Virus record (IMG/VR): IMGVR_UViG_3300028549_001457
Span: 192,001-256,000 of that record
Direction: 5' to 3' (one strand)
From: a virus
Taxonomy: Duplodnaviria; Caudoviricetes
DNA: 64,000 nucleotides
Part shown: piece after piece, positions 32,269-48,416 of the stretch
Position numbering within the stretch: position 1 is the first letter of the stretch
How the letters are laid out: each line of letters begins with the position of its first letter
Made by a program: the position numbers and the translations under genes
The notes under the pieces: model-generated
Databases searched by the model: none
The model's input: the letters and a program-made list of their open reading frames with translations, nothing else
Told to the model about the DNA's origin: nothing

Positions 32269-34965
32269 ATGACAAAGAAAAAAGTTGCCGCAGCAAAGCC
32301 CACAAGTATCCCAGCTTCATTTAGTGGGAGTTCTGTGACTACCTCCGTTTCTCTAGGTGTCCCTAAGTATTCTCAATCCATGTCTTCTGTGGAGAGAATG
32401 GATAATCTGCGTCAGATGCGTAGCCAAAAAACAGCCTCGTCCCACACGGCTCTTTTTGGGGTTGGTGGTGGTATGGGTGGGGCTACTGGATCTCTCAATC
32501 CTTCAAATTACACTAACCCTTATACCCATAACTTCCCGGTAGATATTCTTGAACGTCCGCAAAGTAGGCAGGAGCAGATCGAGTGGAACGTCAGATGGTA
32601 CCGTGAGAACCCCATTGTTAGGCGGGTAATTGATCTTCATTCTCAGCTACCGCTGTCTAAAATGACTATCACAAAACCTGCTTCGTCTTCACAGGCATTT
32701 AGCAATTATGTCCATAAATTCTTCTTGGACATGGCTAAGAATATGAAGCTGATACCTAAATTGAGAAGCAACCTGGGGAAGGCATATTGGCTTCATGGGG
32801 ATGATTTCATCTTCCTAGAAGACCAGAAATTAGACCCTAATGCTACGAATGATAGTGAGTATCAAACAGTTCCAAGTGAATACGATAACCAAGCTAGAAC
32901 AAACTTCTTTGACGTCCACCGGCATATACATACGTCATCCCAAAAAGATTGGGACGTCAAATACGCGAAAATGCTAGCAAATCCCCTGTTTGCACTGGTC
33001 CCCCAATTGCGAGAGCAGGCCCTTCAGGGGTCAACCCCTCGTCCCTCGGGGCCTTTCTTAGATGAGTGTGAATTTAAAGATGTTTTTGGTAATGACGCAA
33101 ACTCGTTTCTACAAGTAATCCATACACTTAAAAATGCGGCTTACGAGTTGAAGAAATTTGCTGATACCATTAATGGTAAGCGTAAAGCGGATATTTCTCG
33201 TCTAAATCCCTTGGTGCTTGCTAAGTTAGGTCCTGAGTTTTTATCGTATAAACATCACAGTGCGTATGTAGCCTACAAAAGTGGATCTGTTAAGACTGCA
33301 GAAGTTAAGGTTGCGGCTGAGGATTCTGAGGGTCCCAATGATGTAGATATGGCACTTGATCCATCCAAACGTCCGGTGTTTAAGCTCATCGGGTTGGACC
33401 CCATTAATGTCCAGAATATCCCAAGAAATGAACGCTCTGTTAGCCCCACGCCAAACCTTGATTTTCAGAAGTTCTTGCAGGATAACCCGACTATTCAGAA
33501 GGCGCTTTCGGAGCTACCTAATCCAAATGAGCCCGTTCAAATCAATAAAACTGAGGAGGATGTCAGTGTAATGGTGTATGGACCCGATGGGGTTACGCCG
33601 TTGCGAGAGGATGATACTTTTGCGAAAACCCCAGAGGAAGATTCAGACATGGGTATGGGGGATATAGCCGACTTAGACATGGGGCCACTCCCAGATGACA
33701 TTATGGCCTCCCCCGAAAATGACCCTGAATATATTGAAAATCTTGAAATCTATAATAAAAACTTAGTTCGCAAGAAGGAGCTTCTTGAAAAACTAATAGA
33801 TGAATTAACGTCTAAAGCAACCGACTATAGATGCTTTGCTAATATTAAATATCCTAAATATAAGGGTTGGCAAGCTATGCGGTCCTTGCCTCCCCATCAA
33901 ATTGAGGTGGCAAGAAAATCCAATTCAGATGTTAAAGAAATATTTTATATCCCATCTGAAGAAGAAGCCGCAACTATCCAAGCCAATTTTGATGATTTAT
34001 CTGAGGAGGCTCAAGGCTACTGGAAGGCTAAAAAGCGGCTGTTGTTATCGTCTGAAACATCAAATGAGCCCAGTCTAACCAATAAGGACCTTCCCGCAGA
34101 CGGGTCTTACTGTGTCCAAGTATCTAACGCCCGTTCTGACTTTGAGTTGTATGGGCATGGATTAGTAGAGCCCTGTTTACGTGACTTGATTCACGATGAT
34201 AAAATTGGGCAGGTAAAGAGCCAAACTTTCGCTAGGAATATGCAGCCTAAGAGACTCGTGGTGGCGGAGGGAGTCGATGACGCTACGTTGGCCAAACTAC
34301 AGGATATGGTGGATGCTTCCACGGTAGACCCAGACGTCTCTATTATTACTAATTATCCAGTTACTTGGCAAGAAATGGGTGTTGGAGACCGCATTCAGAG
34401 TTTTGAAGGTGAGTATTCTCATATTCTTACCAATTTAACTGCTGGATTAGCGTTCTTCCAGGAGTTTATTACTGGACAGATCTCCTATGGTGGGTCTAAG
34501 ACTCCACAGGAAATCATGAACACTATGTATTTAGCCTTCAGAGAAGACATTTCATTTTTTATCCAGGAGTGCATCTTTAGACCTGTTGCAGAACGTAAAG
34601 GTTTTTATGATGTGGATGAATTTGGGCAGAAAATCCTTATATACCCAAATATATCATTCTCCAGATTGGCTATCCGTGATGCCGGTGATACCTATGACAT
34701 GCTAATAAATCTCTACCTTAAGGGTTCCGTATCTATTTCTAGAATTTATGAGATCCTGAATATTGATGAAGAAGAGGAAACCCAGAAACTTGAGGATGAA
34801 CTCTTTACTATTAAGGACCCCAAATTCACAGAGCTTCTTGCGGGTATCTACCAGAATGTTGCACAGACCCTCGTTGAACGAACTAACATAACTGAAATGT
34901 TAGCCAAGAATATGGGTTTGACATATGAAGAACCCTCAGATGATGGTGGAGGCCCTCCTCTATAA
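32269..34965 (+). CDS. portal protein with large central insertion
   Basis: follows terL; ENPIVRRVIDLH..LPLS, YW..GD.F, YGHGLV, terminal helical region typical of jumbo-phage portals. Confidence 0.72.
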   Translation: MTKKKVAAAKPTSIPASFSGSSVTTSVSLGVPKYSQSMSSVERMDNLRQMRSQKTASSHTALFGVGGGMGGATGSLNPSNYTNPYTHNFPVDILERPQSRQEQIEWNVRWYRENPIVRRVIDLHSQLPLSKMTITKPASSSQAFSNYVHKFFLDMAKNMKLIPKLRSNLGKAYWLHGDDFIFLEDQKLDPNATNDSEYQTVPSEYDNQARTNFFDVHRHIHTSSQKDWDVKYAKMLANPLFALVPQLREQALQGSTPRPSGPFLDECEFKDVFGNDANSFLQVIHTLKNAAYELKKFADTINGKRKADISRLNPLVLAKLGPEFLSYKHHSAYVAYKSGSVKTAEVKVAAEDSEGPNDVDMALDPSKRPVFKLIGLDPINVQNIPRNERSVSPTPNLDFQKFLQDNPTIQKALSELPNPNEPVQINKTEEDVSVMVYGPDGVTPLREDDTFAKTPEEDSDMGMGDIADLDMGPLPDDIMASPENDPEYIENLEIYNKNLVRKKELLEKLIDELTSKATDYRCFANIKYPKYKGWQAMRSLPPHQIEVARKSNSDVKEIFYIPSEEEAATIQANFDDLSEEAQGYWKAKKRLLLSSETSNEPSLTNKDLPADGSYCVQVSNARSDFELYGHGLVEPCLRDLIHDDKIGQVKSQTFARNMQPKRLVVAEGVDDATLAKLQDMVDASTVDPDVSIITNYPVTWQEMGVGDRIQSFEGEYSHILTNLTAGLAFFQEFITGQISYGGSKTPQEIMNTMYLAFREDISFFIQECIFRPVAERKGFYDVDEFGQKILIYPNISFSRLAIRDAGDTYDMLINLYLKGSVSISRIYEILNIDEEEETQKLEDELFTIKDPKFTELLAGIYQNVAQTLVERTNITEMLAKNMGLTYEEPSDDGGGPPL

Positions 34966-36365
34966 TGACCAAGTCTTGCCTTGATCTATTAAGGGATAAT
35001 TTTGAGACCCTCCGTAAGGGTGGGACCATCCCACTTGAGGGTCTTTCACCTGAGTGTAGTGAATTTGTCTCTATGCTAAATGATCTCGCAAAACCTTGGG
35101 ATTCTGAGCGTAAAAGACTAGCTAAAGATCGTCTTTTTATTAGCAGTATCCTGGATTCAATCCCCCAGGGGGTGTTTTGGAAGGACACAGATAGTGTGTT
35201 CCTGGGGTGCAACCGCCCTTTCGCGGATATGAATAAACTATCTATGGATAAAGTTATAGGAAAAACTGACTACGAACTGGTGGATAGTAGTTTAGCGCTA
35301 CACTTCAGATCAGAGGATCTTGAGGTGTTGACAACTTTGAAAAGAGTCTACTCCTTGAGTCCACCCTCGGATAGTAAACAACGCTACACACTTACCACAA
35401 AATGTCCTTTAATAGTTAATGATGTTCCTACTGGAGTTATCGGAGTTTCAGAAGATATCACGGATAGAAAAATTGCGGAGCTTCAGCTCAGCTTAAGTGA
35501 GGTTAAGTTTAGAACGCTAACAGAATCTCTAACTGACATTGTATGGATGATGGACCAATCTTTTAATATGTCTTATGTAAACCCTGCTGTGACTAGGTAT
35601 ACCGGGTTTACCGTGGATGAGATTTTAAAGCTACCTTTAGAAAAACGATACGCCCCTGGAACGGTTAAAACTATCCAAAAACGCCTTCGCTTTTTAGATG
35701 ACCCTACGTATATAGGGGACTCAGTAGAGGCAGAGGTCTACCGTAAGGATGGGTCTACGATTTGGATGCTGACTAGATATACTGTGCTGAGGGGTGCTAA
35801 GGGGGAGGTATTTGGGTTTGTCGGCGTGTCTACAGATATCACTGCTCAGAAGAAAAAAGAGTCTATCCTCACGGATTTTGCAACTCTGGATGGGCTTACT
35901 GGTGTGATTAACCGTAGATATTTTATGGAACGGTTGAATGATGAGATGGATCGAGCTTTTAAATATAAAATACCTCTATCCGTGGCTATGCTAGACATAG
36001 ATTACTTCAAGAAAATTAATGATACATATGGGCACCCAGCCGGGGACTCAGCTCTGCTCCAATTTGTGGGTGTCATTCAGGGGTGTCTACGCCAATCAGA
36101 TTTCCTAGGTAGATTGGGAGGTGAGGAGTTTGCAGTGGTTCTTCAGGGAACTTCTGTAGATGCCACAAAGATTCTCGTGGAGAGAATTAGACAATCTGTG
36201 TCTGAAACAGTTGTTTCACATGGGGCACTTTCGTTTAACATGACTGTCTCATCCGGTATTACTGGATTAAAAATGACTGATACGGCAGAGGCTATTATGG
36301 CTCGGGTAGATCAGGCCCTTTACGATGCTAAGGGATCCGGGCGAAATTGCTACCGAGTTATTTGA
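34965..36365 (+). CDS. PAS-PAS-GGDEF diguanylate cyclase
   Basis: two PAS/PAC domains, DGLTGVINRR, LDIDYFKKINDTYGHPAGD, I-site RQSD, GGEEF; TAATG overlap with the portal stop. Confidence 0.95.
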   Translation: MTKSCLDLLRDNFETLRKGGTIPLEGLSPECSEFVSMLNDLAKPWDSERKRLAKDRLFISSILDSIPQGVFWKDTDSVFLGCNRPFADMNKLSMDKVIGKTDYELVDSSLALHFRSEDLEVLTTLKRVYSLSPPSDSKQRYTLTTKCPLIVNDVPTGVIGVSEDITDRKIAELQLSLSEVKFRTLTESLTDIVWMMDQSFNMSYVNPAVTRYTGFTVDEILKLPLEKRYAPGTVKTIQKRLRFLDDPTYIGDSVEAEVYRKDGSTIWMLTRYTVLRGAKGEVFGFVGVSTDITAQKKKESILTDFATLDGLTGVINRRYFMERLNDEMDRAFKYKIPLSVAMLDIDYFKKINDTYGHPAGDSALLQFVGVIQGCLRQSDFLGRLGGEEFAVVLQGTSVDATKILVERIRQSVSETVVSHGALSFNMTVSSGITGLKMTDTAEAIMARVDQALYDAKGSGRNCYRVI

Positions 36366-37293: not shown

Positions 37294-37554
37294 CCTTTCT
37301 TGTGAGAACTATATATGGCTAGTCCACTCATACCTACTACGGTTGATTCCCGTGCTTACAAAGCACCCATTTCAAATCCTACCAGACAATCCAAACTAAT
37401 TATTGCTGCAACAGCAGTAGGTCTCTGGGAAGGTAAAGACCATCACATCGCCACCTGGACAGGGTCCTCCTGGAAGTTTATTAAGCCTATCCAGGGGGTC
37501 TCTACCTGGATTGTTGATGAGGGAGTTGAGGCTACTTGGGATGGATCTGCATGG
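37294..37554 (+). repeat. 261-bp direct repeat, copy 1 (copy 2 at 38433-38693)
   Basis: nearly identical upstream region plus first ~80 codons of ORFs 37315 and 38454. Confidence 0.95.
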
Positions 37555-38352
37555 GTGGTTCCTTCTGGTGGAAGCGGCGGAGGTGAATCTCGTGAAATCC
37601 TTCATGCTGATCGGATCTATTACGTCAGGACAGACGGTAATGACAGCAATACCGGCCTAGTCAATGATGCTAGTGGAGCTTTCCTCACTATCCAGAAAGC
37701 AGTCAATGTTGTTAGCTTAGACATAGACATGAATATATTCCAGGTGACCATCAAGGTCGCAGATGGAACTTACAACACGAGCGGGACCAATTTGTTATTG
37801 GGTGAATATGTCGGGAACTGGAAGCCCCCAATCATTGAGGGGAACATCACAACACCATCAAACTGTATAATATCGAATACGTCCAGCCCGTTGGTTAATT
37901 GCATGAGATCACAGTGGACTATTCGAGGGTTTAGGGTTATCGCAAATGGCTCGCTAGCTTTGTTCGCGCAACTGGGAGCATACCTTACTATTTCGGATAT
38001 CTCTTTTGGATATGCACACGATCAGCATATGTGGGCTAGAAGCTCTGTAATCCAGATCATTGGGAATTACTCTATTGATGGCCCCGCTATCCATCACATT
38101 ATCGCGGAAGACGGGGGATACGTTGGCACCATGGGGTATTCGATAGCAGTATTTATTGCATCAGCCTATACGATAAGCATCATGGCCTATGCAATAAATG
38201 GGTCTACGATTAGGCTCAAACCAGCCACGTTCACTGGGGCACAGCCTGTTGGTATCAGGTATGTCGGTGAGGCTCTATCGGTGATTATTGCGAACAACGC
38301 AATACCCGGAACCGTTGGGGGTAATGTAACTGGCGGAAGTGTGAAACTATAA
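37315..38352 (+). CDS. DUF2793-type tail fibre/receptor-binding protein with beta-helix-like C-terminus
   Basis: A.G.WEGKDHHIA.W.GSSWKFI.P..G; YYVRTDGNDSN.G...AFLTIQKAV. Confidence 0.75.
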   Translation: MASPLIPTTVDSRAYKAPISNPTRQSKLIIAATAVGLWEGKDHHIATWTGSSWKFIKPIQGVSTWIVDEGVEATWDGSAWVVPSGGSGGGESREILHADRIYYVRTDGNDSNTGLVNDASGAFLTIQKAVNVVSLDIDMNIFQVTIKVADGTYNTSGTNLLLGEYVGNWKPPIIEGNITTPSNCIISNTSSPLVNCMRSQWTIRGFRVIANGSLALFAQLGAYLTISDISFGYAHDQHMWARSSVIQIIGNYSIDGPAIHHIIAEDGGYVGTMGYSIAVFIASAYTISIMAYAINGSTIRLKPATFTGAQPVGIRYVGEALSVIIANNAIPGTVGGNVTGGSVKL

Positions 38353-38453
38353 GGTGGTTTAGTTCCTAACAGCTCAAGAGCCCAAGATCATATCATAACA
38401 ACATACCCATCTACTACACTCCTCATGGACCCCCTTTCTTGTGAGAACTATAT

Positions 38454-39155
38454 ATGGCTAGCCCCCTCATTCCTACTACGGTTGATTCCCGTGCTTACAA
38501 AGCACCCGTTTCAAATCCTACCAGACAATCCAAACTGATTATTGCTGCAACAGCAGTAGGTCTCTGGGAAGGTAAAGACCATCACATCGCCACCTGGACA
38601 GGGTCCTCCTGGAAGTTTATTAAGCCCATCCAGGGGGTCTCTACCTGGATTGTTGACGAGGGAGTTGAGGTTACTTGGGATGGATCTGCATGGAATACCC
38701 CTGTTGTTACAGCTACCTACATTGGATTAGACAATGTAAATAATACTTCTGACATGGATAAACCCGTGTCAACAGCTACGCAGATTGCTCTGACGTCATT
38801 GGCACTACGGGCACCTTTTCGCTGGTTTTATGAAACTCCTCTTAATATCCTAGATCGCCAGCCTGTGTATCGCGTGGAAACACTATCGAATTTAAAGGCA
38901 ATTCGCTGGTTTAGAAATACCCTTACTGCTGTGTCCGGAGTGGCTTCCATAGCTATTTATAAAAATAGTAGCTCAACAGCACTCTACACAGTTACGATCC
39001 CAGATAATGCCTCCGGTAAATTGTGGGTTGATGCCCTTACGGGATTAAGTTCCCCTCTTGTAGTCGGTGATTATCTTGAGGTGGTTGTGACCGCAGGCAA
39101 CGCCACCCTAGATAATCTTACTGTTCAATTAGATATTGAGCAGGCTGTCTACTAG
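38454..39155 (+). CDS. DUF2793-type short tail-fibre protein
   Basis: same N-terminus as 37315; C-terminal domain shared with ORF 45936 (W(F/Y)(Y/F)ETPL...DRQPVY). Confidence 0.75.
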   Translation: MASPLIPTTVDSRAYKAPVSNPTRQSKLIIAATAVGLWEGKDHHIATWTGSSWKFIKPIQGVSTWIVDEGVEVTWDGSAWNTPVVTATYIGLDNVNNTSDMDKPVSTATQIALTSLALRAPFRWFYETPLNILDRQPVYRVETLSNLKAIRWFRNTLTAVSGVASIAIYKNSSSTALYTVTIPDNASGKLWVDALTGLSSPLVVGDYLEVVVTAGNATLDNLTVQLDIEQAVY

Positions 39156-39163
39156 GATCTTAA

Positions 39164-40435
39164 ATGGCCTTCAAAAGTCCGCATGTGTTAGTTGAACTCG
39201 ATGGAGTCGCATATAGATACTTCCCTTTACATCTTTGTCTTGTAGATGCTGGGGAGAGTCTTGTTGAGTTTGAAAGGCCCCCAAAAACACCTAGAGATTT
39301 CCAGGAATTTGACCCTAAGGATCTAAGGTCTATTAACATATCTTTAACATCCAAGTGTAACTTTGCCTGTAAATACTGTTATGCAGCAGACGCACACGCT
39401 AATAATGAGCCGGATATGTCCCCTGAGATGGTGTCCGCCATTATATCACTTGTATCCCAAGTTAATGGGACCGTAAAGGTCTCCTTCCTACCTCAGGGGG
39501 AGTCCCTCACAACTGAGAGTTCTCTCTTTGAACTCTGTGAAAAGCTTCTCGCTACGGGGAAGGTGCATTCATTCTCATTAACCACCAATTTATCTTTAAT
39601 AACTAATAGAAATATCCATCTTATTAAGAAGTATTTCTCTAGGGTTTCCGCATCATTTGATGGAAGTGAATATATCCAGAATTTCCAGAGACCTTTCTTA
39701 GGGGGACAGGATACCTTTGACATAGTTAAACAAGCTTTGTTGCTACTCATTGAGAATAGGATTCCCTTTGGGATTCGAGGGACTATTACTGATCCAATGC
39801 TAGATTATATAACAACAATTGCTGACTTTTTAGATACCCTCCAAGAACATCCGGGTTATACGGATATGTTTAAAGAACCTATTCGAGTTGTTTTACAGCC
39901 TTATGTAGGAAGTGTGTCCGACCCGTTAACATGTCAAGATCATCTGCGTTTTTTGGGAGCGTTTGAAAGGCTTAAACAACGACAGATGGGTAAGCTATGG
40001 CATGTTTCCTATGGGGATATGGAAGAGTCTGAATATCTTCCTATTAAGTTTGTTGGGTGTGGATTAACCAACCCACATACCTCTTTAACCTTCATGAATA
40101 ACGGGCTAGTGGCAACTTGCCATAGAAAGTCAACCCCAGAGAGTTCCGCGTTAGATCCTCTTTTTGTGGGTAGGTTTGATTCAACACAGGGCAACTATGT
40201 ATTTAACTTTGACAAGCTATCCAAATTTACTTCAGTTGTTGGAGATTGCGTTTCTTGTGTAGCTAGATTTTCTTGTGCTGGAGGTTGTTTTATAACTAAT
40301 CAGGATGCAGATGCCAAGAGATTTAGATGCAACTTGGTTAGACACGATCTTTTAAGTCACCTGAGAAAATCTAAGATAGCTTTACTTCAGCGAGGCTCCA
40401 CAATACCTTTTTTAGGAGTAGAAAATGGCGATTGA
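39164..40435 (+). CDS. radical SAM enzyme with SPASM domain
   Basis: CNFACKYC (CxxxCxxC), LTTNLSL, SASFDG, SPASM C...G...C...CVSCVARFSCAGGC...C. Confidence 0.92.
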   Translation: MAFKSPHVLVELDGVAYRYFPLHLCLVDAGESLVEFERPPKTPRDFQEFDPKDLRSINISLTSKCNFACKYCYAADAHANNEPDMSPEMVSAIISLVSQVNGTVKVSFLPQGESLTTESSLFELCEKLLATGKVHSFSLTTNLSLITNRNIHLIKKYFSRVSASFDGSEYIQNFQRPFLGGQDTFDIVKQALLLLIENRIPFGIRGTITDPMLDYITTIADFLDTLQEHPGYTDMFKEPIRVVLQPYVGSVSDPLTCQDHLRFLGAFERLKQRQMGKLWHVSYGDMEESEYLPIKFVGCGLTNPHTSLTFMNNGLVATCHRKSTPESSALDPLFVGRFDSTQGNYVFNFDKLSKFTSVVGDCVSCVARFSCAGGCFITNQDADAKRFRCNLVRHDLLSHLRKSKIALLQRGSTIPFLGVENGD

Positions 40436-40889
40436 TATATTAAGACCATCTTCATGGGACACTACCGCTAGCATATCCACCCCAGCATATGCTTATGATG
40501 GCAATACCACGACAGTAGCAACTGTAACCAACAATACTACGGGGCTTTCCATAACAAGGAATCTACAAGGATTCTCTGCGGCTCAACATACGTATACTAC
40601 GCTAACGCTAAAGATAGATCTGATGCCCGATGTCTTTACAGAGCAAGCTGGGTCCAGGGTTACTGTCCAAGTAAGCACCGATGCTACGAATTATGCCACC
40701 ATATTTATAGGAGACGATAGTAATAAAATGCTTCGTCAGACAATCTCCTATGCACTCCCTGTAGGTACTAACATGGCTAATGTTCGTGTTAAATTTATTC
40801 TTCTAGCTGACGAGTCTTTTGTGTGTAATGTAAAGGATGGAGTGTTGTGTTCCTTTGGTGACTGTATTTACCCTGATGCACCTGTGTAA
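40425..40889 (+). CDS. beta-sandwich virion-protein fragment ending in a C-x7-C-x4-C tail
   Basis: overlaps the rSAM stop; paralogous to an internal domain of ORF 41578 but lacks its last strand. Confidence 0.75.
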   Translation: MAIDILRPSSWDTTASISTPAYAYDGNTTTVATVTNNTTGLSITRNLQGFSAAQHTYTTLTLKIDLMPDVFTEQAGSRVTVQVSTDATNYATIFIGDDSNKMLRQTISYALPVGTNMANVRVKFILLADESFVCNVKDGVLCSFGDCIYPDAPV

Positions 40890-40938
40890 TACCTAATAAA
40901 TTGATATGTAATGACAAATATATAAATTGAGGTGATAC

Positions 40939-41565
40939 ATGAGTTATGCTATTGCATATGTATATGATGCGTGGATAGAGGGTAACTGGACCACCCCTCC
41001 CCCTACAGTTTCTTCATGGTCTGGGTCAGCCACAATTGGATCAACTATAACCGTAACAGGCGCTAATTTTACGGGAGCAACTGCGGTTAAGATAGGTTCT
41101 AATTCGGTATCCTCATACACCGTTGTATCTGCATCTTCCATTACATTTACGCTTACCACGGCTCACCAAGGGTGGTCGGGGGTTCTTTCAGTTACAACTG
41201 CTAGTGGGACTGGATCTGGGGGTTCAACGTTAACCGTCCCAACAATCTCCGTTGGGGCTCCTACTCCTGGTGGTCAGTATACTTCTGTGGGGTATACACG
41301 ACAGTTCACAAGCGGGGGGGTTTCGGGGGCTGTTAACACCTCCGTAACATGGTCAACCAACGGCGGGTCCATTACCGGATCTGGACTCTACACCGCCCCT
41401 GGTACCTCAGGCACATACACTATTTGGAATACTTCAGTTGCGGATTCTTCCAAGAGTAATAGCTGCACTGTGTATATAGTTGCTCTCCCAACAGCTAGCC
41501 TTTCCGCCACTAGGGGAACCATCACCGCTGGTCAATCCACTACAATAACACCAATATTTACTTAA
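40939..41565 (+). CDS. IPT/Ig-like repeat protein, second piece of the split adhesin
   Basis: starts with strand AYVYDAWIEG; IPT-like (GSTITVTGANFTGATAVKIG) and Ig repeats; GAGGTG RBS. Confidence 0.8.
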   Translation: MSYAIAYVYDAWIEGNWTTPPPTVSSWSGSATIGSTITVTGANFTGATAVKIGSNSVSSYTVVSASSITFTLTTAHQGWSGVLSVTTASGTGSGGSTLTVPTISVGAPTPGGQYTSVGYTRQFTSGGVSGAVNTSVTWSTNGGSITGSGLYTAPGTSGTYTIWNTSVADSSKSNSCTVYIVALPTASLSATRGTITAGQSTTITPIFT

Positions 41566-41577
41566 AGGGGACATGGA

Positions 41578-44500
41578 ATGAGCGGTTCAATTGATCAAGG
41601 TATTGGTGTAGTAACTAGCGGTCAAGCTTATAGCACTGGGGCACTCTCCGCCTCCAGAACGTATACCCTTACATCTACTAACGCTGCAGGGCAGAGTGCA
41701 ACTTCCCAGGTAACTGTGAATGTTGTCGCGGCTACCATTATTAATAGTTTTGTGGGGGCTACAACTGTAACTGCTGGAACTAGCACCACGCTATCCTGGA
41801 ATGTTTCTAATGCTACTTCTGTAAATATCTCCCCTACAGTAGGTGGGGTGATGGCGTCTGGTAGCACCTCAGTAACTCCCTCGGCTTCTCAGACATACAC
41901 TCTTACAGCAACAAATGCAGCGGGGGATTCCACCACCTCTTCCCAAACAGTTACTGTAGTCCCAGCGCCAATCATCTCAAGTTTTACTGGCCAGAAGACA
42001 ATCACTGCTGGACTCTCGACAACTTTATCTTGGGTAGCTTCTAATGGAACTAGTTATTCTATTTCACCTACCGTTGGGTCTGTAGCTGCTTCTGGAACAA
42101 CTGGGGCACTGTCTCCAGGGGCCTCTCAGACGTATACATTAACAGTAACTAACGCTGCAGGAACTTCCGTAACGGCTACGCAAACGATCTATGTAGTAGC
42201 GGCACCTTCTATTACATCGTTCACGGCTTCTAATACAAATCCGTTATATGGTGCATCCGTTACAATTACACCAACGTTCTCAAATGGATCCGGTAGTATT
42301 ACCGGAGTGGGAGCTGTTGCAAGTGGCACCGCTTATGGGACGGGAGCTGTCACCTCTACGCTAGCGTATACTTTAACGGTGTCCAATGGGGCCACAACCC
42401 CTGCGACTACAACCGCAGGGGTCTCAATCACACCCCAGACTGTATCGGTTTCAGCGATTTCTCCCGCAGCGCCTACAAAGTCTGTAAATACCCAGACTAC
42501 ATTTAGTTCCTCTGTAAGTGGAGCGATTAATTCCACAATCAACTGGACTTGCACAGGTGGATCTATCACATCCGGGGGTATATGGACTGCACCAGCAACT
42601 CCTGGTAATTACACCATTACAGCAACATCTGCCGCTGATGGGTCTAAATTTACATCTACTGCAGTTAACTTAGTTGCCCTTCCAATTGCTACTAGTTTAG
42701 TTCCAGCCACTTCTAATCCTCTATACGGAGCTACGGTAGACATTACTGCCACCTTCTCAGATGGGTCTGCTATCGTTGATAATGGCGTGGGCGGTATCGG
42801 TTCTTCACCCAAAGCTTTTACTACTTCAGCTATTACTTCAGCTCAAACCTATACTTTGACCGTAACAAATTTGGCTGGGGCTACGGCCACTACTTCTACA
42901 ACTGTGATTCCCCAGACTGTGTCTGTTTCGGCTATTTCTCCAGCGGCTCCTACAAAGTCTATAAATACCCAGACTACATTTAGTTCCTCTGTAAGTGGAG
43001 CGCTTAATTCCACAATTAATTGGACTTGCACAGGAGGGTCCATTACCGCAGGAGGGGTTTGGACTGCTCCTGCAACTCCTGGAAATTACACCATTACAGC
43101 AACATCTGCCGCTGATGCAACAAAGGTGGCAACTACATCTGTAACGTTAGTAGCTTTACCAACCATTTCTAATTTTGTAACTGCGCTAGCAAATATCACC
43201 ACTGGGGATTCTACAACAATTACCCCCACATTTACAGGCACTTCTGCCAGGATTGGCACCACTGGGTCGGGTTCTTCGGATATTAACCCTTCCGTGTCTA
43301 GTGGAACTGGTGTTCTAGTAACACCTAACTCCAATAAAACATACACATTAACCGTGTATAACACTGCGGGGGATTTTACTACTGCTAGTGTTGGTGTAAA
43401 TGTATACGCCGTTCCCACAATTTCCCTAGTTCTAACGGAAGCTAGTGGAACTTCCAATGATGGTATTATTACAGAGGGTGCCTCGGTAACACTTACCCCC
43501 ACGTTCACGGGTGGGACCGCTACCTTAGGAACTACCGGGTCCGGTTCATCTAATACGTCTGCAAGCTGCACTAGCGGTGTGGGGGTGGTCTCTACATTAG
43601 GTTCCTCACAGACTTATACCGCCACAGTTACAAATCCAGCGGGTAGGGTTGTAACAGCTACGGCCTCTGTCATTAGTTATGCCGCTCCTAGTATCTCCAG
43701 CTTTACAGTAGCTAGTAATCCCATTGATAGAGGCGCTATAGGGACACTGTCGTATGTGTTTGCAAACGGTGTCGGGGTCATTAACAACGGGATTGGTTCG
43801 GTTGCCAGTGGCCTCACTTCGGATACTCCAGCTCTTACCGTGGGCACTACTTACACACTTACCGTCACCAACCCCGCTGGGACATCAGCCCAGGCTACTG
43901 CAACGGTTAACGTAAATGCTGTTGCAGTCTCTCTAGCATCCCCAGGAAGTCCTGGCAACCAAACAACTTCTCGCTACAGAGCAACAAGCTACGCAGTTCC
44001 CCACACGGGGGGTTCCTTATTAGGGACTCCAGGTAATCTCATAGATGCAAACCCTAGCTCATATACCACCGGGACTGCCAATCCCGCTGGACTGTATGGG
44101 ATGCAGATTTATAATTTCCCCAGCATTTCAGATATAACCTCCTTATCAATCCCTTCTATAGCTTTTGCTGGTGGGTCTGGAGCACTCTCTACCTCATGTT
44201 GGATTAGCCTAGATAATGGTGCAAGTTGGATATCGTCTCCTACCCTTGTCCCCAATGGGGCAGGGTTAACTTTGACCCCTGCTCAAGTCCAAACTCTCGG
44301 GAACTTGAGTAATCTACGCCTATCAATTCAATTTAACATATCGGCCAATGGGTTCTTTTGGGTTTCTGATTTCCCCGTGGACGTAACCTACTTAAATGCT
44401 GCTAGCATTACGAAATCAGTTGGAAGTCAGGTTCAATACTACGCTACCGTTACAGGGGCTGTAAATACTGCAGTTACTTGGACATGCTCAGGTGGCTCCA

Positions 44501-45864
44501 TAACTTCTAGCGGGTTATATACCGCCCCAGCAACTATTGGGACATACACAGTTACTGCAACTAGCCAGTCAGATAATACCAAGTCACGTACACATACCGT
44601 AACAACTGTTGCGATGCCAACTGCTTCACTAACTGCTTCTTCGAATCCAGTCCCCTATGGATCTGCAGCATTTCTAACTCCAACCTTTACTAATGGAGTG
44701 GGGGTTCTCAGTGGGTTTGGGACCGTTACGTCAGGCCAAGCTAACTTGAGCACGGGGGCTATGGTAGGGACTCCAAAATCCTATACGCTAACAGTTACGA
44801 ACGCTGCAGGCGACTCCGCTATAGCTTCTATTACCATTACTAATACTGAAGTAACACTTACCCCCATTACGGTTTCAAACGCTATTACAACTGTAGGGAC
44901 TATTGAACAATTCTATGCAACTGCGGCTGGGGCGGCTTTCAATCTCATTACTTGGACAGCATCTGGCCCAGGTGGGGGTGGGTCCTGGACGGGGAGTTCC
45001 TGGACGTCCCCTGGGACCCCCGGAACCTATACTATTACAGCAACTGCTCAAGCTGATGGGGTCACCTCTCGGAGCTTTACGGAAACTGTGGTAGCTGCCG
45101 CCACCGCAAATCTAGTAGCTGATACCACAAACCCTCTTGTTGGAGCCACTGTAGCCCTAACTCCAACGTTCACGGGTGGGACTGCGATACTTGGGACTTC
45201 TGCAGGGTCCAATAATGTATCTGCGAGTGCTATCTCTGGTCAGGAGATCTTGGTATCCAGTGCTGCTAATACATACACGCTACGTGTGACCAATGCGGCG
45301 AGTGACTTTGTGGATAGCTCTGTTTTGGTAGCTCCACAGATAGTTGTAGTGAATACTCCATCGCAGGAGTTGGGATTTACATATCAGACCATTAACACCA
45401 GTAGAGCATATACCGCAGAAGTTACTGGGGCGGTAGACACCTCAGTTGCGTGGTCTACCACGGGGTCTGGTATTGGTATTTGGGATTCTAACTATTGGAC
45501 TTCTGAGGCAACAGGTGCCTTTACAATAACAGCAACGTCTGTGGTAGATCCCGCTAAGTCCAATTCAAGAGTTATACAAGTCTTAGCGGCCCCAAGCTTA
45601 AGTATTGAAGGGGACTCATCAGTACTTCATGGTGGCACTGTAGCTATCACTCCTACTTTCTCGGTAGACGGGGGTGCTGCTTCTGTGAGTTTAGATCACG
45701 GTATTGGGTTTGTAACTAATGGGCAGGCAATCCAAGTAACCCCCTCCGAAGACATTACTTATACATTAACGATAACCAATCTAGCAGGGGACACCTTTAC
45801 CGTAAGTAAGCTTATTACTGTTGATATCCCTAAGTCGGGTAAAAAATCTGCAGCAGCAAGTTAA
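41578..45864 (+). CDS. giant Ser/Thr/Gly-rich Ig-like repeat protein (fibre/adhesin)
   Basis: many TYTLT.TN.AG and V.W...GG.ITS.G.YTAP repeats; in frame with ORF 40939 across a TAA. Confidence 0.85.
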   Translation: MSGSIDQGIGVVTSGQAYSTGALSASRTYTLTSTNAAGQSATSQVTVNVVAATIINSFVGATTVTAGTSTTLSWNVSNATSVNISPTVGGVMASGSTSVTPSASQTYTLTATNAAGDSTTSSQTVTVVPAPIISSFTGQKTITAGLSTTLSWVASNGTSYSISPTVGSVAASGTTGALSPGASQTYTLTVTNAAGTSVTATQTIYVVAAPSITSFTASNTNPLYGASVTITPTFSNGSGSITGVGAVASGTAYGTGAVTSTLAYTLTVSNGATTPATTTAGVSITPQTVSVSAISPAAPTKSVNTQTTFSSSVSGAINSTINWTCTGGSITSGGIWTAPATPGNYTITATSAADGSKFTSTAVNLVALPIATSLVPATSNPLYGATVDITATFSDGSAIVDNGVGGIGSSPKAFTTSAITSAQTYTLTVTNLAGATATTSTTVIPQTVSVSAISPAAPTKSINTQTTFSSSVSGALNSTINWTCTGGSITAGGVWTAPATPGNYTITATSAADATKVATTSVTLVALPTISNFVTALANITTGDSTTITPTFTGTSARIGTTGSGSSDINPSVSSGTGVLVTPNSNKTYTLTVYNTAGDFTTASVGVNVYAVPTISLVLTEASGTSNDGIITEGASVTLTPTFTGGTATLGTTGSGSSNTSASCTSGVGVVSTLGSSQTYTATVTNPAGRVVTATASVISYAAPSISSFTVASNPIDRGAIGTLSYVFANGVGVINNGIGSVASGLTSDTPALTVGTTYTLTVTNPAGTSAQATATVNVNAVAVSLASPGSPGNQTTSRYRATSYAVPHTGGSLLGTPGNLIDANPSSYTTGTANPAGLYGMQIYNFPSISDITSLSIPSIAFAGGSGALSTSCWISLDNGASWISSPTLVPNGAGLTLTPAQVQTLGNLSNLRLSIQFNISANGFFWVSDFPVDVTYLNAASITKSVGSQVQYYATVTGAVNTAVTWTCSGGSITSSGLYTAPATIGTYTVTATSQSDNTKSRTHTVTTVAMPTASLTASSNPVPYGSAAFLTPTFTNGVGVLSGFGTVTSGQANLSTGAMVGTPKSYTLTVTNAAGDSAIASITITNTEVTLTPITVSNAITTVGTIEQFYATAAGAAFNLITWTASGPGGGGSWTGSSWTSPGTPGTYTITATAQADGVTSRSFTETVVAAATANLVADTTNPLVGATVALTPTFTGGTAILGTSAGSNNVSASAISGQEILVSSAANTYTLRVTNAASDFVDSSVLVAPQIVVVNTPSQELGFTYQTINTSRAYTAEVTGAVDTSVAWSTTGSGIGIWDSNYWTSEATGAFTITATSVVDPAKSNSRVIQVLAAPSLSIEGDSSVLHGGTVAITPTFSVDGGAASVSLDHGIGFVTNGQAIQVTPSEDITYTLTITNLAGDTFTVSKLITVDIPKSGKKSAAAS
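42433..43117 (+). repeat. recent intragenic duplication (42433-42640 vs 42910-43117)
   Basis: about 208 bp at offset 477, mostly synonymous differences. Confidence 0.9.
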
Positions 45865-45935: not shown

Positions 45936-48416
45936 ATGGCAACAATATATATCCCAACCACAGTTAACTCACGCAGTATCTCTGCCCCTCCAGAGACTCC
46001 TGTTCGTGGCTCTAGATACATCGTTGCTGAAAACCCTAGTGGGGTTTGGGCATCCCACGCCATGCAAATAACCACCTGGGATGGCAGTAGGTGGAAATTT
46101 ATCATCCCAACAATAGGTGTCTCAACTTGGGTGCTTGATGAGGCTCTTGAAGTCACGTTTGATGGATCTTTATGGAAAACCTCTGCGGATATAAACTCTG
46201 CTATATTTGACGAATCTTCTATAACTACCACATGCTTCCCCACATGGGTGCTTGGGAGTGGTCCCCAGGCGATTAGTATATCATCGTCAAAGTTGTCCTT
46301 TACCCCAAATACGGGCAACTTAGCCTCTAGTGTCTTTACAGGATCGGGGGCTGGGCTCACTGAGATCCCCAATGGTGCGCTAGTGAACTCATCCTTGCGC
46401 CTAGGGACGTCCATAGTAGCGTTGGGAGAAGAAACTCTCTCGCTGGCAGGCTTGGTGTCTATTGCAGCTACAACTTTTTTAGGGGCACTTTCCGGGAATG
46501 CTTCATCAGCCACGGTAGCTACTAACCTAGCGGGGGGCAACTCGGGGTATATCCCATATCAAACTGGGGTGGGAGGGACTAGTTTTATCCCGTCAGGGGT
46601 TGGGGTGCTAGTTGGGGGTGCGGTTCCAAGCTTCACACAAACCCCCTCTTTACAGGGGTTGCATTTCTCAGGGATTCCAGGGTCCGCTATTTCTAGTAGC
46701 GTAAGCTCTGCCATTGCCACAGGTATTACTGATTCTAATGAGTCATTCAATACGGTTTACCCAACATGGGTTTCTGAGGCTAATGGGGAATCCTCCCATA
46801 AGGTATCTAGCTCCAAACTTACATTTATCCCTGCTACTGGAGTGTTATACGCAACAGGTTTTAGTGGCTCAGGGGCGCTTCTAACAGATTTGCCGAATGG
46901 GTCCCTAAGCAACTCAAGTATTATGATAGGCTCTACCAGTATTTCTTTAGGTGAATCCACGAGTAGCCTGTCTAATTTAACCTCTGTTAGTGCGTCTACA
47001 TTTGTTGGAAATTTATCGGGAACGGCTTCTGCTGCTACCTCCACTATTAACTTAAGTGGGGGTAGCCCTGGAGCTGTTCCATTCCAAAGTTCCGAGGGGA
47101 TTACTTCATTTGCATCAGGCGCAGGGGTCCTAGTAGGTGGACTTGCCCCTAGTTTTTCAACGTCTCCAGCTATTCAAGGGTTCCACATTACGGATATTCC
47201 CGGTTCAGCTATTTCTAGCGCAGTTGCTTCTGCGGATACTGCCACTAAGTTAGTTATCTCCAGCGATACTTGGACGAGCACTCCTGTTTACCCTATCTGG
47301 GCGGGGGCTATTGGGGAGGCTCCTTTACGAGCAACCGAGTCATCTTTATCGTTTATACCTTCAACAGGGGTGCTCTCAGCTATACAATTTGAGGGGTCAG
47401 GGGCTGGTTTATCGGGTATCCCTAATAGTTCTCTTGTGAATTCCACTGTTAGTATTGGAACCACTACGTTATCTCTTGGGGGCTCCGTAGATACTCTTGA
47501 AGGATTGACGTCTGTGGCTGCTACCACCTTCGTTGGGGATCTTACCGGGAATGCCGCTACTGTATCTACAAACGCTAATTTATTAGGTGATGTATCCTCA
47601 CTGGGTAATGTCACACAGATAGGGGTTAATAAAGTCACCCTGCCTCATTTAGCTTTGGTGGGAAGTGCTACATTTTTGGGGAGGTCTTCTGAGTCTACTG
47701 GAAATGTTGAAGAGCTATCCGCAACTCAAGCAACTTCTCTATTAAACGTTTTTGGGACTTCAAAGGGCCTCGTTCCGGGGGTCACACCTAATGCGTCTCA
47801 ATTTTTATGTGCGGATGGGACTTTCTCAACTCCAACGGGGACGGGTGTTGCATCTATTTCAGCTACGCTCCCGATTCTTTCAAGTGGCGGGACTTCCCCT
47901 GTAATCTCAATACCCGCCGCAATAAGTGGGGTGGATGGGTATATGTCAGGGGACCAAGCAAGTAAGCTTGCCCTTTTAGAGGCCCACCCTTTAACGCACC
48001 CACCCTCCATAATTGAGCAGGACTCTCTAAATAGGTTTGTGACTGATGCTGAAAAGACTTCCTGGAATACCCAACAGTTTAGATTTAAATGGTTTTTTGA
48101 AACACCCCTAACTGTTGTAGATCGTCAGCCTGTCTATTTAATAGAAGTCGCATCTACGCTTAAAACTATTAAGTTATTTAGAAATAGTCTAACTATATTA
48201 TCTGGTGTAGCTCAGTTAGCTATCTATAAGAATAGCGAAACCACAGCTTTGTATACCTTAAACTTGGATGACACCCTTCCAGGCAACTCCTGGGTTACAC
48301 TTTTCTCAAATCTATCAGAGACTCTTCAGGCAGATGACTTTCTTCAAATAAAAGTTATCGAGGGGAACCCAACATTTGAAAACCTAACTTTTCAACTTAA
48401 TATTGACTCAAATTGA
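45936..48416 (+). CDS. long DUF2793-type tail-fibre protein
   Basis: DUF2793-like N-terminus, three YP/FPTWV...SKL.F.P.TG.L repeats, C-terminal domain shared with 38454. Confidence 0.8.
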   Translation: MATIYIPTTVNSRSISAPPETPVRGSRYIVAENPSGVWASHAMQITTWDGSRWKFIIPTIGVSTWVLDEALEVTFDGSLWKTSADINSAIFDESSITTTCFPTWVLGSGPQAISISSSKLSFTPNTGNLASSVFTGSGAGLTEIPNGALVNSSLRLGTSIVALGEETLSLAGLVSIAATTFLGALSGNASSATVATNLAGGNSGYIPYQTGVGGTSFIPSGVGVLVGGAVPSFTQTPSLQGLHFSGIPGSAISSSVSSAIATGITDSNESFNTVYPTWVSEANGESSHKVSSSKLTFIPATGVLYATGFSGSGALLTDLPNGSLSNSSIMIGSTSISLGESTSSLSNLTSVSASTFVGNLSGTASAATSTINLSGGSPGAVPFQSSEGITSFASGAGVLVGGLAPSFSTSPAIQGFHITDIPGSAISSAVASADTATKLVISSDTWTSTPVYPIWAGAIGEAPLRATESSLSFIPSTGVLSAIQFEGSGAGLSGIPNSSLVNSTVSIGTTTLSLGGSVDTLEGLTSVAATTFVGDLTGNAATVSTNANLLGDVSSLGNVTQIGVNKVTLPHLALVGSATFLGRSSESTGNVEELSATQATSLLNVFGTSKGLVPGVTPNASQFLCADGTFSTPTGTGVASISATLPILSSGGTSPVISIPAAISGVDGYMSGDQASKLALLEAHPLTHPPSIIEQDSLNRFVTDAEKTSWNTQQFRFKWFFETPLTVVDRQPVYLIEVASTLKTIKLFRNSLTILSGVAQLAIYKNSETTALYTLNLDDTLPGNSWVTLFSNLSETLQADDFLQIKVIEGNPTFENLTFQLNIDSN

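Follow-up and report, generated by a model that had tools for sequence, protein, structure and literature searches.

In a phage tail-fibre module, we found a radical SAM/SPASM gene that overlaps the start of a gene whose protein ends in a cysteine-bearing tail, and the phage probably uses Cys-Asp thioether chemistry to staple a component of its virion. The reading we favor, to which we give a probability of about 0.6, is that the enzyme puts RiPP-like Cys-to-Asp thioether rings on the tail of ORF 40425, a protein that would be fibre-associated through a strand of ORF 40939. The radical SAM/SPASM enzyme would have as its substrate the free tail at the C-terminus of the product of the overlapping next gene, joining each tail Cys to the Asp four residues downstream at the latter's beta-carbon, in the manner of PapB (freyrasin) and QhpD (QhpC). 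As many as three small rings closed by thioethers would result, with a mass shift of -2 Da per ring and about -6 Da overall, and they would be resistant to reduction and proteases. The modified protein is predicted to be a beta-sandwich unable to finish its fold alone, and the 19 N-terminal residues of the TIG/Ig-repeat fibre protein (ORF 40939) are predicted to insert as the missing interior strand. Since the fibre N-terminus would supply that strand, the tail would be placed on a virion fibre or appendage. The features of the locus are given in Table 1.

Table 1. Features of the locus, in positions of the window (the whole 64,000-nucleotide stretch of DNA that was analysed).
Feature	Position	Strand	Basis or remark
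Two tail-fibre genes with near-identical DUF2793 N-termini	37315-38352 and 38454-39155 (feature 37315..39155)	+	Directly 5' of the enzyme gene
Radical SAM/SPASM enzyme, 423 aa	39164..40435	+	Pfam, NCBIfam, alignment, structure model
Overlap of enzyme stop and ORF 40425 start, 11 nt	40425..40435	+	Sequence; stop at 40433-40435, AGGAG upstream of ATG
ORF 40425 predicted beta-sandwich body (residues 1-128), without last strand, no Cys	40425..40808	+	Complex prediction, homologues P0166/P0167
ORF 40425 C-terminal tail (residues 129-154) and stop; proposed cross-linking site	40809..40889	+	CX3D motifs
AT-rich spacer, 49 nt, with RBS GAGGTG at 40929-40934	40890..40938	+	Sequence; same in independent assembly
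Donor strand (ORF 40939 residues 1-19), predicted to complete the ORF 40425 sandwich	40939..40995	+	Complex prediction
Remainder of ORF 40939: TIG/IPT domain and first Ig-like repeat	40996..41565	+	Pfam, L004 comparison
ORF 41578, 1428-aa Ig-repeat fibre or structural protein	41578..45864	+	PHROG 2155

The radical SAM/SPASM enzyme and its neighbours

The locus belongs to a giant phage from microbial mats with a genome of 279 kb. Genes flanking the unit formed by the enzyme and ORF 40425 encode DUF2793 or PHROG tail-fibre proteins (Pfam, PHROG), with DUF2793 fibre genes on both sides; the two upstream genes matched DUF2793 with E-values of 9e-16 and 7e-16 (Pfam) and also matched PHROG tail-fibre families. 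Downstream, residues 23-99 of ORF 40939 were identified as TIG (Pfam, E 2.7e-6), and ORF 41578 matched PHROG 2155, a virion structural protein (E 1e-24). These last two ORFs are in frame and separated by an in-frame TAA, and they form a single ORF in the related phage L004. No Pfam or PHROG family was matched by ORF 40425 or its homologue. The initial annotation had placed the enzyme among tail-fibre genes, overlapping the start of ORF 40425, and had described a Cys tail followed by an AT-rich gap with a GAGGTG site and then ORF 40939; both descriptions agreed with our analysis. The 11-nt overlap suggests translational coupling of the enzyme and ORF 40425. A 1627-nt contig from an independent run of another study covers 39692-41318 with 0 differences, so the stop and the gap after ORF 40425 are not assembly errors. 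No RNA run was among the sequencing runs listed for the stretch.

The enzyme gene is the sole radical SAM gene of the genome, and a gene caller chose an alternative GTG start for it at 39185. The gene was intact, as initially described. Its product passed the Pfam Radical_SAM model (PF04055), scoring 45.3 bits where 29.5 is the cut-off, and its motif, Pfam score and fold were all those of a radical SAM enzyme. The CX3CX2C motif (C65, C69, C72), which in this superfamily holds the 4Fe-4S cluster that cleaves SAM, was invariant in an alignment of 60 sequences. The SPASM pattern was complete (C299-x14-G314-x4-C319, C362-x2-C365-x5-C371-x3-C375, C389), providing the seven Cys for two auxiliary clusters, all of which aligned to those of CteB; the stand-alone Pfam SPASM model gave no match. 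Nine of the ten cluster Cys were invariant in the same 60-sequence alignment and C375 was nearly so.

The best NCBIfam match was PapB (NF047865; 4e-28, 98.6 bits, core residues 54-382), followed by QhpD (1.6e-21) and then by nif11, SCIFF and anSME maturases. Every NCBIfam family score was far below its cut-off; for PapB the equivalog cut-off is 340 bits, with relatives of the enzyme scoring 94-157 bits, and for the anSME family TIGR03942, of which the enzyme is not a member, the score was 60.9 bits against 349. Judged by its sequence, the enzyme is PapB-like and not a PapB equivalog, and because of this low score we infer the Cys-Asp chemistry from family resemblance and motif, not from orthology. 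The closest solved relatives, both by sequence and by fold, were CteB and anSME (E 9.5e-16 to CteB structure 5wgg; TM about 0.6-0.65 to CteB/anSME, using a structure model with pLDDT 88.9). By these comparisons the enzyme groups with the maturases that form thioethers in peptides and proteins (PapB, QhpD, SCIFF/CteB, anSME) and not with the cofactor or base-modification enzymes, the grouping that the initial annotation had named as fatal to its proposal.

The distance of all family scores from their cut-offs, the scores of SCIFF, anSME and sactipeptide maturases and the structural closeness to CteB and anSME would also fit the same enzyme and substrate pair with another chemistry, such as a sactionine (S to alpha-carbon), other acceptor residues or an anSME-like conversion of Cys to formylglycine. 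However, the two best families target Asp or Glu, and an Asp is found at +4 of every tail Cys. The substrate motif of anSME is C/S-x-P/A-x-R, and a check of the ORF 40425 tail sequence found no C-x-[PA]-x-R, which argues against the anSME type. We consider a different chemistry quite unlikely.

An RRE at the enzyme N-terminus, for which the initial annotation had proposed a check, was not found in full. The structure model contained three strands (8-12, 15-20 and 25-28) and a low-confidence linker (30-50) without helices, so that of a full RRE (three-stranded sheet and three helices) the sheet was there and the helical half was missing. The alignment to CteB begins at CteB residue 91, and the relatives P0016 and P0017 carry an insert of roughly 20 residues at the N-terminal linker region. 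The incomplete RRE, together with a substrate that has no recognisable leader, counts against our preferred explanation with respect to substrate recognition.

The cysteine tail and its conservation

ORF 40425 encodes 154 aa, and its tail holds three consecutive C-x3-D motifs (C134-D138, C142-D146, C147-D151; 40824-40877), all within the last 21 residues and preceded by a predicted folded domain in which no leader-like region was recognised. These are the only Cys of the protein. A tail of the form C-x7-C-x4-C had been reported initially; the Cys tail is indeed present, but it is better described as three CX3D, a motif that the earlier description missed. CX3D is the experimentally defined target motif of PapB, in which an S-C(beta) link to Asp is made (PMC9413430), and PapB also joins Cys to the C-terminal Gly in a leader-CSANG peptide (PMC12373016).

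In shuffles of the ORF 40425 composition, an Asp at +4 of all three Cys was obtained in 350 of 1,000,000 (3.5e-4), and confinement of the three Cys to the final 30 residues in 6,864 of 1,000,000. No second cluster of three C-x3-[DE] occurs in any of the six frames of the genome, and ORF 40425 was the only ORF with at least three Cys all in the last 30 residues (crude set of 304 ORFs of at least 60 aa). A cluster of three CX3D arose somewhere in the proteome in 158 of 2000 within-protein shuffles and is therefore not very rare at that scale, so what carries weight is that it falls in the very gene to which the genome's single radical SAM gene is coupled.

The nearest relative with a readable locus was phage L004, with an enzyme 39% identical to the one described here. 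The gene order was kept, consisting of the enzyme, a 156-aa homologue of ORF 40425 with its ATG directly after the enzyme stop, and a strand-first fibre protein whose N-terminus resembles the ORF 40939 donor strand. Residues 38-145 of ORF 40939 were 51% identical to residues 38-143 of this 1644-aa L004 protein. A YkgJ-type CxxCxxCC gene lies upstream of the L004 enzyme and is absent from the genome described here, so it is not a required part. The tail-protein family has three known members, with gene context for two. The homologues P0166 and P0167 both keep a three-Cys tail and end in C-x-R-G-D-x-C-C-I-x-L-G, in which Cys, Asp and the terminal Gly are fixed and x varies. These L004-type tails contain only one clear CX3D, the other two Cys having no Asp at +4, which counts against our preferred explanation.

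Among more distant viral loci with related enzymes, a clearly Cys-rich protein was observed beside the enzyme in 6 of 7 independent loci, several of which adjoin tail fibres. In L003, L007, L008, L010 and L012 a radical SAM/SPASM gene lies in a tail-fibre module and adjoins a protein with a Cys-rich C-terminus. Together with the Cys-tailed protein of L004, these loci bear out the expectation that homologous enzymes would be accompanied by a Cys-rich candidate substrate. Searches of other collections were less productive. No close relative was found by DNA among the INPHARED phage records, where protein identities were only 22-30%, nor among viral contigs searched with the single enzyme sequence; at high identity, a word-based protein search returned only the protein itself. 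The nearest bacterial match from that search (P0002) was uninformative: the four Cys of its neighbour, an ORF of 99 aa, are scattered and form no CX3D cluster. Enzyme relatives from a metagenome scan were at most 27% identical over most of the enzyme and were mostly QhpD-like by reading of their loci, and a species-genome scan for the ORF 40425 tail protein gave no match.

The pairing of tail and enzyme could be coincidental, with the tail forming disulfides or binding metal and the enzyme having another substrate or being a mere neighbour. The frequency of the CX3D triple in the proteome shuffles would allow for this, and the fibre proteins of some other phages do bind metals. Against it, the genes overlap and their order is kept in a second phage in which the enzyme has diverged to 39% identity, the genome has no other Cys-motif cluster, and Cys-rich proteins are also found beside related viral enzymes. 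Three Cys without His would be ill suited to binding a metal, and disulfide pairing sits badly with an odd Cys count. A chance association is very unlikely in our estimation.

The predicted split beta-sandwich and the proposed mechanism

Complex prediction with ORF 40425 and ORF 40939 gave a score of 0.91, while the best of three controls scored 0.00; of the solved complexes 51 of 78 attain that mark, and of the mismatched pairs 2 of 108. The runs shared at least 98% of contacts, with a partner pLDDT of 92. Residues 1-19 of ORF 40939 were predicted to pair, as a strand inside the sandwich, with residues 1-8 and 55-74 of ORF 40425, and ORF 40425 residues 126-129 to contact ORF 40939 residue 4, so that the tail would exit beside the N-terminus of the donor strand. 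The prediction was made from single sequences, and ORF 40425 residues 130-154 fall outside the confident interface, so the position of the tail itself is not given. An Atlas model of ORF 40425 (pTM 0.67) resembled beta-sandwich domains of F5/8-C and adhesin type with TM about 0.6-0.67, which we treat as a lead only; single-sequence AlphaFold2 gave a pLDDT of 42.6, too low for a fold search. The complex prediction supports ORF 40425 as a split domain whose missing strand is supplied by the N-terminus of ORF 40939, as had been proposed initially. From its gene context and this predicted complex, ORF 40425 would be a part of the virion.

An unsplit paralogue of ORF 40425 was found elsewhere in the genome, aligning up to the cut point and then continuing with a similar last strand (hhalign E 2.9e-4). 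The initial annotation had instead taken ORF 40425 to be paralogous to an internal domain of ORF 41578, a relationship that we rejected as unsupported (BLASTP E 5.8; hhalign probability 0.3%; z of about 2 by shuffling, where 47 of 1000 shuffled sequences did equally well). A phmmer search of ORF 40425 against all ORFs of the genome returned nothing significant.

We also set aside a bypass or frameshift that would join ORF 40425 to ORF 40939. The two ORFs are in different frames and each is preceded by an RBS of its own, and the ORF 40939 ATG has a TGA two codons upstream. In L004 the genes are likewise split, although the spacer there is another one.

With a body at its N-terminus, a Cys-rich core at its C-terminus and a maturase-type gene alongside, ORF 40425 has the layout of a RiPP precursor (PMC13692751) and could on that ground be a precursor with a very long leader, whose tail of 20-25 residues is cleaved and released as a bioactive ranthipeptide, with no part in the virion. 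By the complex prediction, however, the body is an incomplete sandwich whose missing strand comes from a fibre protein, the same arrangement occurs in the L004 fibre module, and no protease or exporter gene was seen among the scanned neighbours, which were fibre-type or structural genes (Pfam, PHROG). We therefore judge a secreted product highly improbable.

The exit of the tail beside the donor strand raises a further alternative, in which a tail Cys is linked to D10 or E14 of ORF 40939, or to an acidic residue of a neighbouring subunit, covalently locking the complemented domain as the isopeptide does in split CnaB. The donor strands of both phages contain Asp or Glu, and the two Cys of the L004-type tails without an Asp at +4 would be available for such a link. 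Yet all three Cys of the present tail have their own Asp at +4, fitting intramolecular rings of the PapB type (PMC9413430), and the thioether-forming radical SAM/SPASM examples PapB, QhpD and CrpC link within one chain (PMC9413430, PMC13692751). The initial annotation had left open whether the tail is cyclised or the two halves are stitched together; its RiPP-like reading was supported computationally, and the C-x3-D spacing speaks for intra-tail rings rather than stitching, which seems to us rather improbable.

For the preferred reading, rings within the tail, the split would have its own rationale. A cut in the loop before the last strand would free the C-terminal core, giving it the character of a RiPP precursor, and strand complementation would then restore the domain. 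It is also conceivable, though unlikely, that the gene fission and the enzyme are parts of one mechanism. In a docking version, the helix-less N-terminal beta-sheet of the enzyme would sit in the open groove of the sandwich like a pilus chaperone, modify the free tail and then be displaced by the fibre N-terminal strand (donor-strand exchange). In a covalent version, a tail Cys linked to an acidic donor-strand residue would form an enzyme-made lock between two virion proteins.

In the literature consulted, radical SAM thioether cross-links are known from secreted peptides and from a very small number of proteins (QhpC, CrpA), and our full-text literature search found no paper reporting them on a virus particle. 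If the proposal is true, phages turn RiPP chemistry to hardening or shaping part of a fibre, with possible effects on host recognition and particle stability. A conserved split sandwich repaired by the strand of the next protein would be a way for a folded structural protein to offer a free RiPP-like core, and to present it to an enzyme without a full recognition domain, which may be of use in engineering cross-linked protein tags. The case is especially testable because the tail carries the exact CX3D motif, for which the chemistry has already been worked out with PapB.

Comparison with known systems

PapB and its substrate PapA (freyrasin) are the nearest system by profile, and they share with the phage pair a substrate, putative in the phage, that carries Cys-X3-Asp at its C-terminal end and, as the expected phage product, S-C(beta) thioether rings. 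The L004-type tail, moreover, ends in C-x3-Gly-COOH, as does the leader-CSANG cyclised by PapB (PMC12373016). Differences include the score of the phage enzyme (98.6 vs 340 bits), three motifs instead of six, a substrate predicted to be a 154-aa folded domain without a recognisable leader, the lack of the helical part of the RRE, and a location in a phage fibre module instead of a bacterial gene cluster. QhpD and QhpC (quinohemoprotein amine dehydrogenase maturation) are the second-best profile match. QhpD forms thioethers from Cys to Asp and to Glu within a protein subunit, which is later incorporated into a larger complex (PMC13692751), and QhpD-like loci, judged from a conserved QhpC-like downstream ORF, were the nearest relatives on metagenome contigs. 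In contrast to the phage pair, QhpC comes with a leader and carries a quinone cofactor, while QhpD, an enzyme of the bacterial periplasm, uses an RRE and has no virion link or split domain.

CteB with CteA (SCIFF) and anSME are the closest solved structures, and all of the SPASM Cys align. CteB differs in making a Cys-Thr link in a short peptide and in having a complete RRE at its N-terminus (nothing in the phage enzyme corresponds to residues 1-90), and anSME differs in oxidising Cys or Ser in sulfatases. CrpC of Methanococcus voltae is likewise a radical SAM/SPASM enzyme and makes ranthionine links on a large Cys-rich protein, CrpA, rather than on a peptide (PMC13692751). The likeness is one of description, and the system differs from ours in being archaeal and cellular, in having an RRE and in having a substrate that is Cys-rich throughout.

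Chaperone-usher pili are assembled with donor-strand complementation, and split CnaB domains are those of the SpyTag/SpyCatcher type. As predicted for the phage proteins, an incomplete beta-sandwich has its last strand supplied by the next subunit's N-terminus. The parallel is no more than an analogy: there is no sequence relation, nor a chaperone or an usher, and the phage domain may or may not be locked covalently. The Cys-repeat fibre tails beside radical SAM/SPASM genes (L003, L007, L008, L010, L012; compare the CXXX-repeat system TIGR04115) also combine an enzyme in a fibre module with a Cys-rich C-terminus. Those tails consist of long repeats (CxCN, CXXX) in contrast to the short three-CX3D tail on a split domain observed here, and their enzymes are 22-32% identical to the phage enzyme. 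What stands out in the present locus is the canonical CX3D motif together with the split domain.

Enzyme and gene neighbourhood

The virus record spans 278,785 bp (~95% complete by estimate), of which the window represents bases 192001-256000, and the phage occurs in microbial-mat metagenomes. Only one radical SAM gene, ORF 39164, was found in the whole genome, and its module sits within a plus-strand run of structural genes.

Positions of the module, its surroundings and related features
Feature	Position	Strand	Remarks
466-aa ORF	34965-36365		starts at the last base of a preceding 898-aa ORF
DUF2793 tail-fibre gene	37315-38352	+	upstream of enzyme; shared N-terminus at 37315-37560
DUF2793 tail-fibre gene (ORF 38454)	38454-39155	+	upstream of enzyme; shared N-terminus at 38454-38700
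Radical SAM/SPASM enzyme (ORF 39164)	39164-40435	+	Pfam Radical_SAM above cut-off
Tail protein, 154 aa (ORF 40425)	40425-40889	+	
Fibre gene (ORF 40939)	40939-41565	+	
In-frame junction	41563-41580		TAA, AGGGGACATGGA and ATG only
Ig-repeat protein, 1428 aa (ORF 41578)	41578-45864	+	PHROG 2155, virion structural protein, E 1e-24
DUF2793 fibre, 826 aa (ORF 45936)	45936-48416	+	downstream of Ig-repeat protein
Unsplit Cys-free paralogue, 220 aa	genome 272,508-273,170 (L095:1509-2171)		outside the window; directly 3' of a fibre-like 416-aa gene
CxxCxxCC protein, 118 aa	L004:7652-8008		just upstream of radical SAM gene; 3' end overlaps tblastn match to the enzyme
Cys-rich protein, 206 aa	L007:4184-4804		between 1351-aa tail fibre and related radical SAM gene
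CXXX-repeat protein, 395 aa, then two tandem radical SAM genes	L010:3792-7149		also in L011

The radical SAM gene had been reported as intact with its SPASM region, and this was confirmed by the Pfam match and by the presence and conservation of all of its radical SAM and SPASM cysteines. These form the motif C65-x3-C69-x2-C72 and a complete SPASM pattern (C299-x14-G314-x4-C319, C362-x2-C365-x5-C371-x3-C375, C389), and they line up with the cysteines of CteB. Across a 60-sequence alignment C375 was nearly invariant and the other nine were invariant. The separate Pfam SPASM model gave no match on the enzyme; full-length NCBIfam maturase models aligned across its SPASM region, led by the PapB ranthipeptide maturase (4e-28) and QhpD (1.6e-21), then Nif11-type, SCIFF/CteB and anSME models, with all scores far under the equivalog cut-offs. 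CteB and anSME were the nearest solved structures by both sequence and fold. The AlphaFold2 model, built from 60 homologues, was confident (pLDDT 88.9, pTM 0.88). An RRE, which the initial annotation had considered for the N-terminus, was not borne out; three short strands (residues 8-12, 15-20 and 25-28) and a poorly defined linker preceded a core starting at residue 56, and RRE helices were absent from this part of the model.

The two upstream fibre genes share nearly identical N-termini of ~80 residues, and the C-terminal module of ORF 38454 is also found in ORF 45936, which suggests cassette-like shuffling of fibre parts. Further upstream, the 466-aa ORF contains a GGEEF motif, strongly matches PHROGs of unknown function and looks like a PAS-GGDEF diguanylate cyclase within the structural region; the 898-aa ORF before it has a weak PHROG portal match (E 2.7e-10).

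Cysteine tail and predicted split beta-sandwich

The enzyme gene overlaps the start of ORF 40425, as first noted, by 11 nt between its stop and the ATG, with an AGGAG upstream of that start. The C-x7-C-x4-C tail described for this protein is present, but the Asp at +4 of every Cys had been overlooked. All three cysteines of the protein fall within the last 21 residues, as C134-NVK-D138, C142-SFG-D146 and C147-IYP-D151, and CX3D is the motif where PapB forms S-C(beta) links (PMC9413430). Among 1,000,000 shuffles of the protein's own residues, each of the three Cys had Asp at +4 in 350, and the three Cys were confined to the 30 C-terminal residues in 6,864. Across all six reading frames of the genome, the tail was the sole cluster of three C-x3-[DE] within 25 residues, and ORF 40425 was alone among a crude set of 304 ORFs (at least 60 aa) in carrying at least three Cys with every one of them in its last 30 residues. 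Because 158 of 2000 within-protein shuffles also yielded a C-x3-[DE] cluster somewhere in the proteome, the case rests on the cluster being in the sole radical-SAM-coupled gene.

The 49-nt AT-rich spacer with GAGGTG between the ORF 40425 stop and ORF 40939 was found as described, and both stop and spacer are real, since a 1627-nt contig from a different study was identical across 39692-41318 (zero differences). The proposal that the start of ORF 40939 supplies the missing strand of ORF 40425 was supported by complex prediction. ORF 40425 with residues 1-105 of ORF 40939 scored 0.91 against 0.00 for the best of three controls. In calibration, 51 of 78 solved complexes attained this value, as did 2 of 108 mismatched pairs. 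The three runs showed at least 98% contact agreement, with a pLDDT of 92 for the ORF 40939 partner. In the predicted complex, residues 1-19 of ORF 40939 run antiparallel to both residues 55-74 and the N-terminal strand (1-8) of ORF 40425, which would make them an interior strand of the sheet. Just ahead of the tail, residues 126-129 contact residue 4 of ORF 40939 in the prediction, as expected if the gene had been cut within the loop that precedes the last strand; the tail itself is given no position. The predicted fold of ORF 40425 is a beta-sandwich, with an Atlas model at TM ~0.6-0.67 to F5/8-C and adhesin-type domains as a lead only.

An internal domain of ORF 41578, originally taken as the paralogue of ORF 40425, was not supported in that role. 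A better paralogue is present elsewhere in the genome, outside the window. This unsplit 220-aa protein showed a co-linear alignment as far as the cut (113 columns; hhalign, E 2.9e-4, probability 40%). Beyond that point its chain continues unbroken, with a Cys-free loop leading into a final strand that resembles the start of ORF 40939. It gives moderate, not strong, backing to the split-domain reading.

ORF 40939 and ORF 41578 share a frame, and a contig spanning 41345-41700 in an independent assembly carries the same TAA between them. Their counterparts in the related phage contig L004 are one ORF, and this stop either marks a site of readthrough or shows that the fibre gene has been split a second time.

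Conservation in other viruses

An exhaustive HMMER search with the enzyme returned one clearly closer relative, P0015 (41% identity, E 3e-87), followed by P0016 at 32%. A relative of P0015 (87%) is located on L004 (105 kb), where the enzyme is 39% identical to that of the window and, as anticipated, a Cys-tailed ORF lies downstream. Gene order is the same. A fibre resembling ORF 38454 at its C-terminus is followed by the enzyme, then by P0166, a 156-aa homologue of ORF 40425 that begins directly after the enzyme stop, and then, across a gap of 11 nt, by a 1644-aa strand-first fibre protein. This last protein has a similar N-terminal strand ahead of its TIG domain and Ig repeats, and corresponds to ORF 40939 and ORF 41578 as a single gene. 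P0166 and a third family member known without its contig (P0167) have three Cys only, all in the tail C-x-R-G-D-x-C-C-I-x-L-G-end, where Cys, Asp and the terminal Gly are fixed and x positions differ; therefore one CX3D motif is retained. Their last Cys lies four residues ahead of the C-terminal Gly, a suggestive parallel only to the leader-CSANG arrangement, with the same spacing, that PapB also cyclises (PMC12373016). The 118-aa CxxCxxCC protein of L004 is a putative zinc- or iron-chelating protein (PF03692, E 6e-12), for which no counterpart was found in the window's genome.

More distant viral contigs (L003, L007-L014) reduce to six independent loci besides L004, with enzymes 22-32% identical to that of the window over most of the length in L003, L007, L008 and L012 and over the N-terminal radical SAM core alone in L010 and L013. 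Five of the six had a clear Cys-rich protein beside the enzyme: Ig-like proteins with long Cys-rich tails (L003), the 206-aa protein (L007), a 166-aa CTCNQV-repeat protein 3' of a fibre-like gene (L008), the CXXX-repeat protein (L010; 56 Cys) and a 111-Cys protein (L012). L013 had an ambiguous candidate only, ~2 kb upstream. In the L007 protein, a short Cys-rich segment (CTCDLNCASDGGCC) precedes what appears by eye to be a Hint/intein-type domain with HN near the C-terminus.

Proposed maturation and comparison with known systems

At the sequence level, our analysis establishes an intact enzyme of the thioether type whose gene overlaps that of a three-CX3D protein, in a conserved three-gene module; strand complementation with the fibre protein is predicted. 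Most of the initial annotation held, apart from the ORF 41578 paralogy, and its interpretation of a phage modifying a structural protein in RiPP-like fashion was supported by the computational tests run. The enzyme would close as many as three thioether rings in the ORF 40425 tail, each joining a Cys to the beta-carbon of an Asp. The gene split may let an enzyme without a full RiPP recognition element (RRE) meet a free C-terminal core, and the modified tail would end up on a virion fibre. Candidate roles of the rings include rigidity, protease or redox resistance, a donor-strand lock and a binding surface.

Full-text literature searches found no paper reporting that a radical SAM enzyme modifies a protein of the phage particle. 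Among known maturases, PapB (PMC9413430) and QhpD (PMC13692751) both link the sulfur of Cys to an Asp or Glu side chain at its methylene carbon. The enzyme is not a PapB equivalog, scoring far below the cut-off. The system is best described from its sequence as a putative new PapB- and QhpD-like variant of radical SAM/SPASM thioether maturation that would act on a phage structural protein and is unusual in its split-domain substrate.
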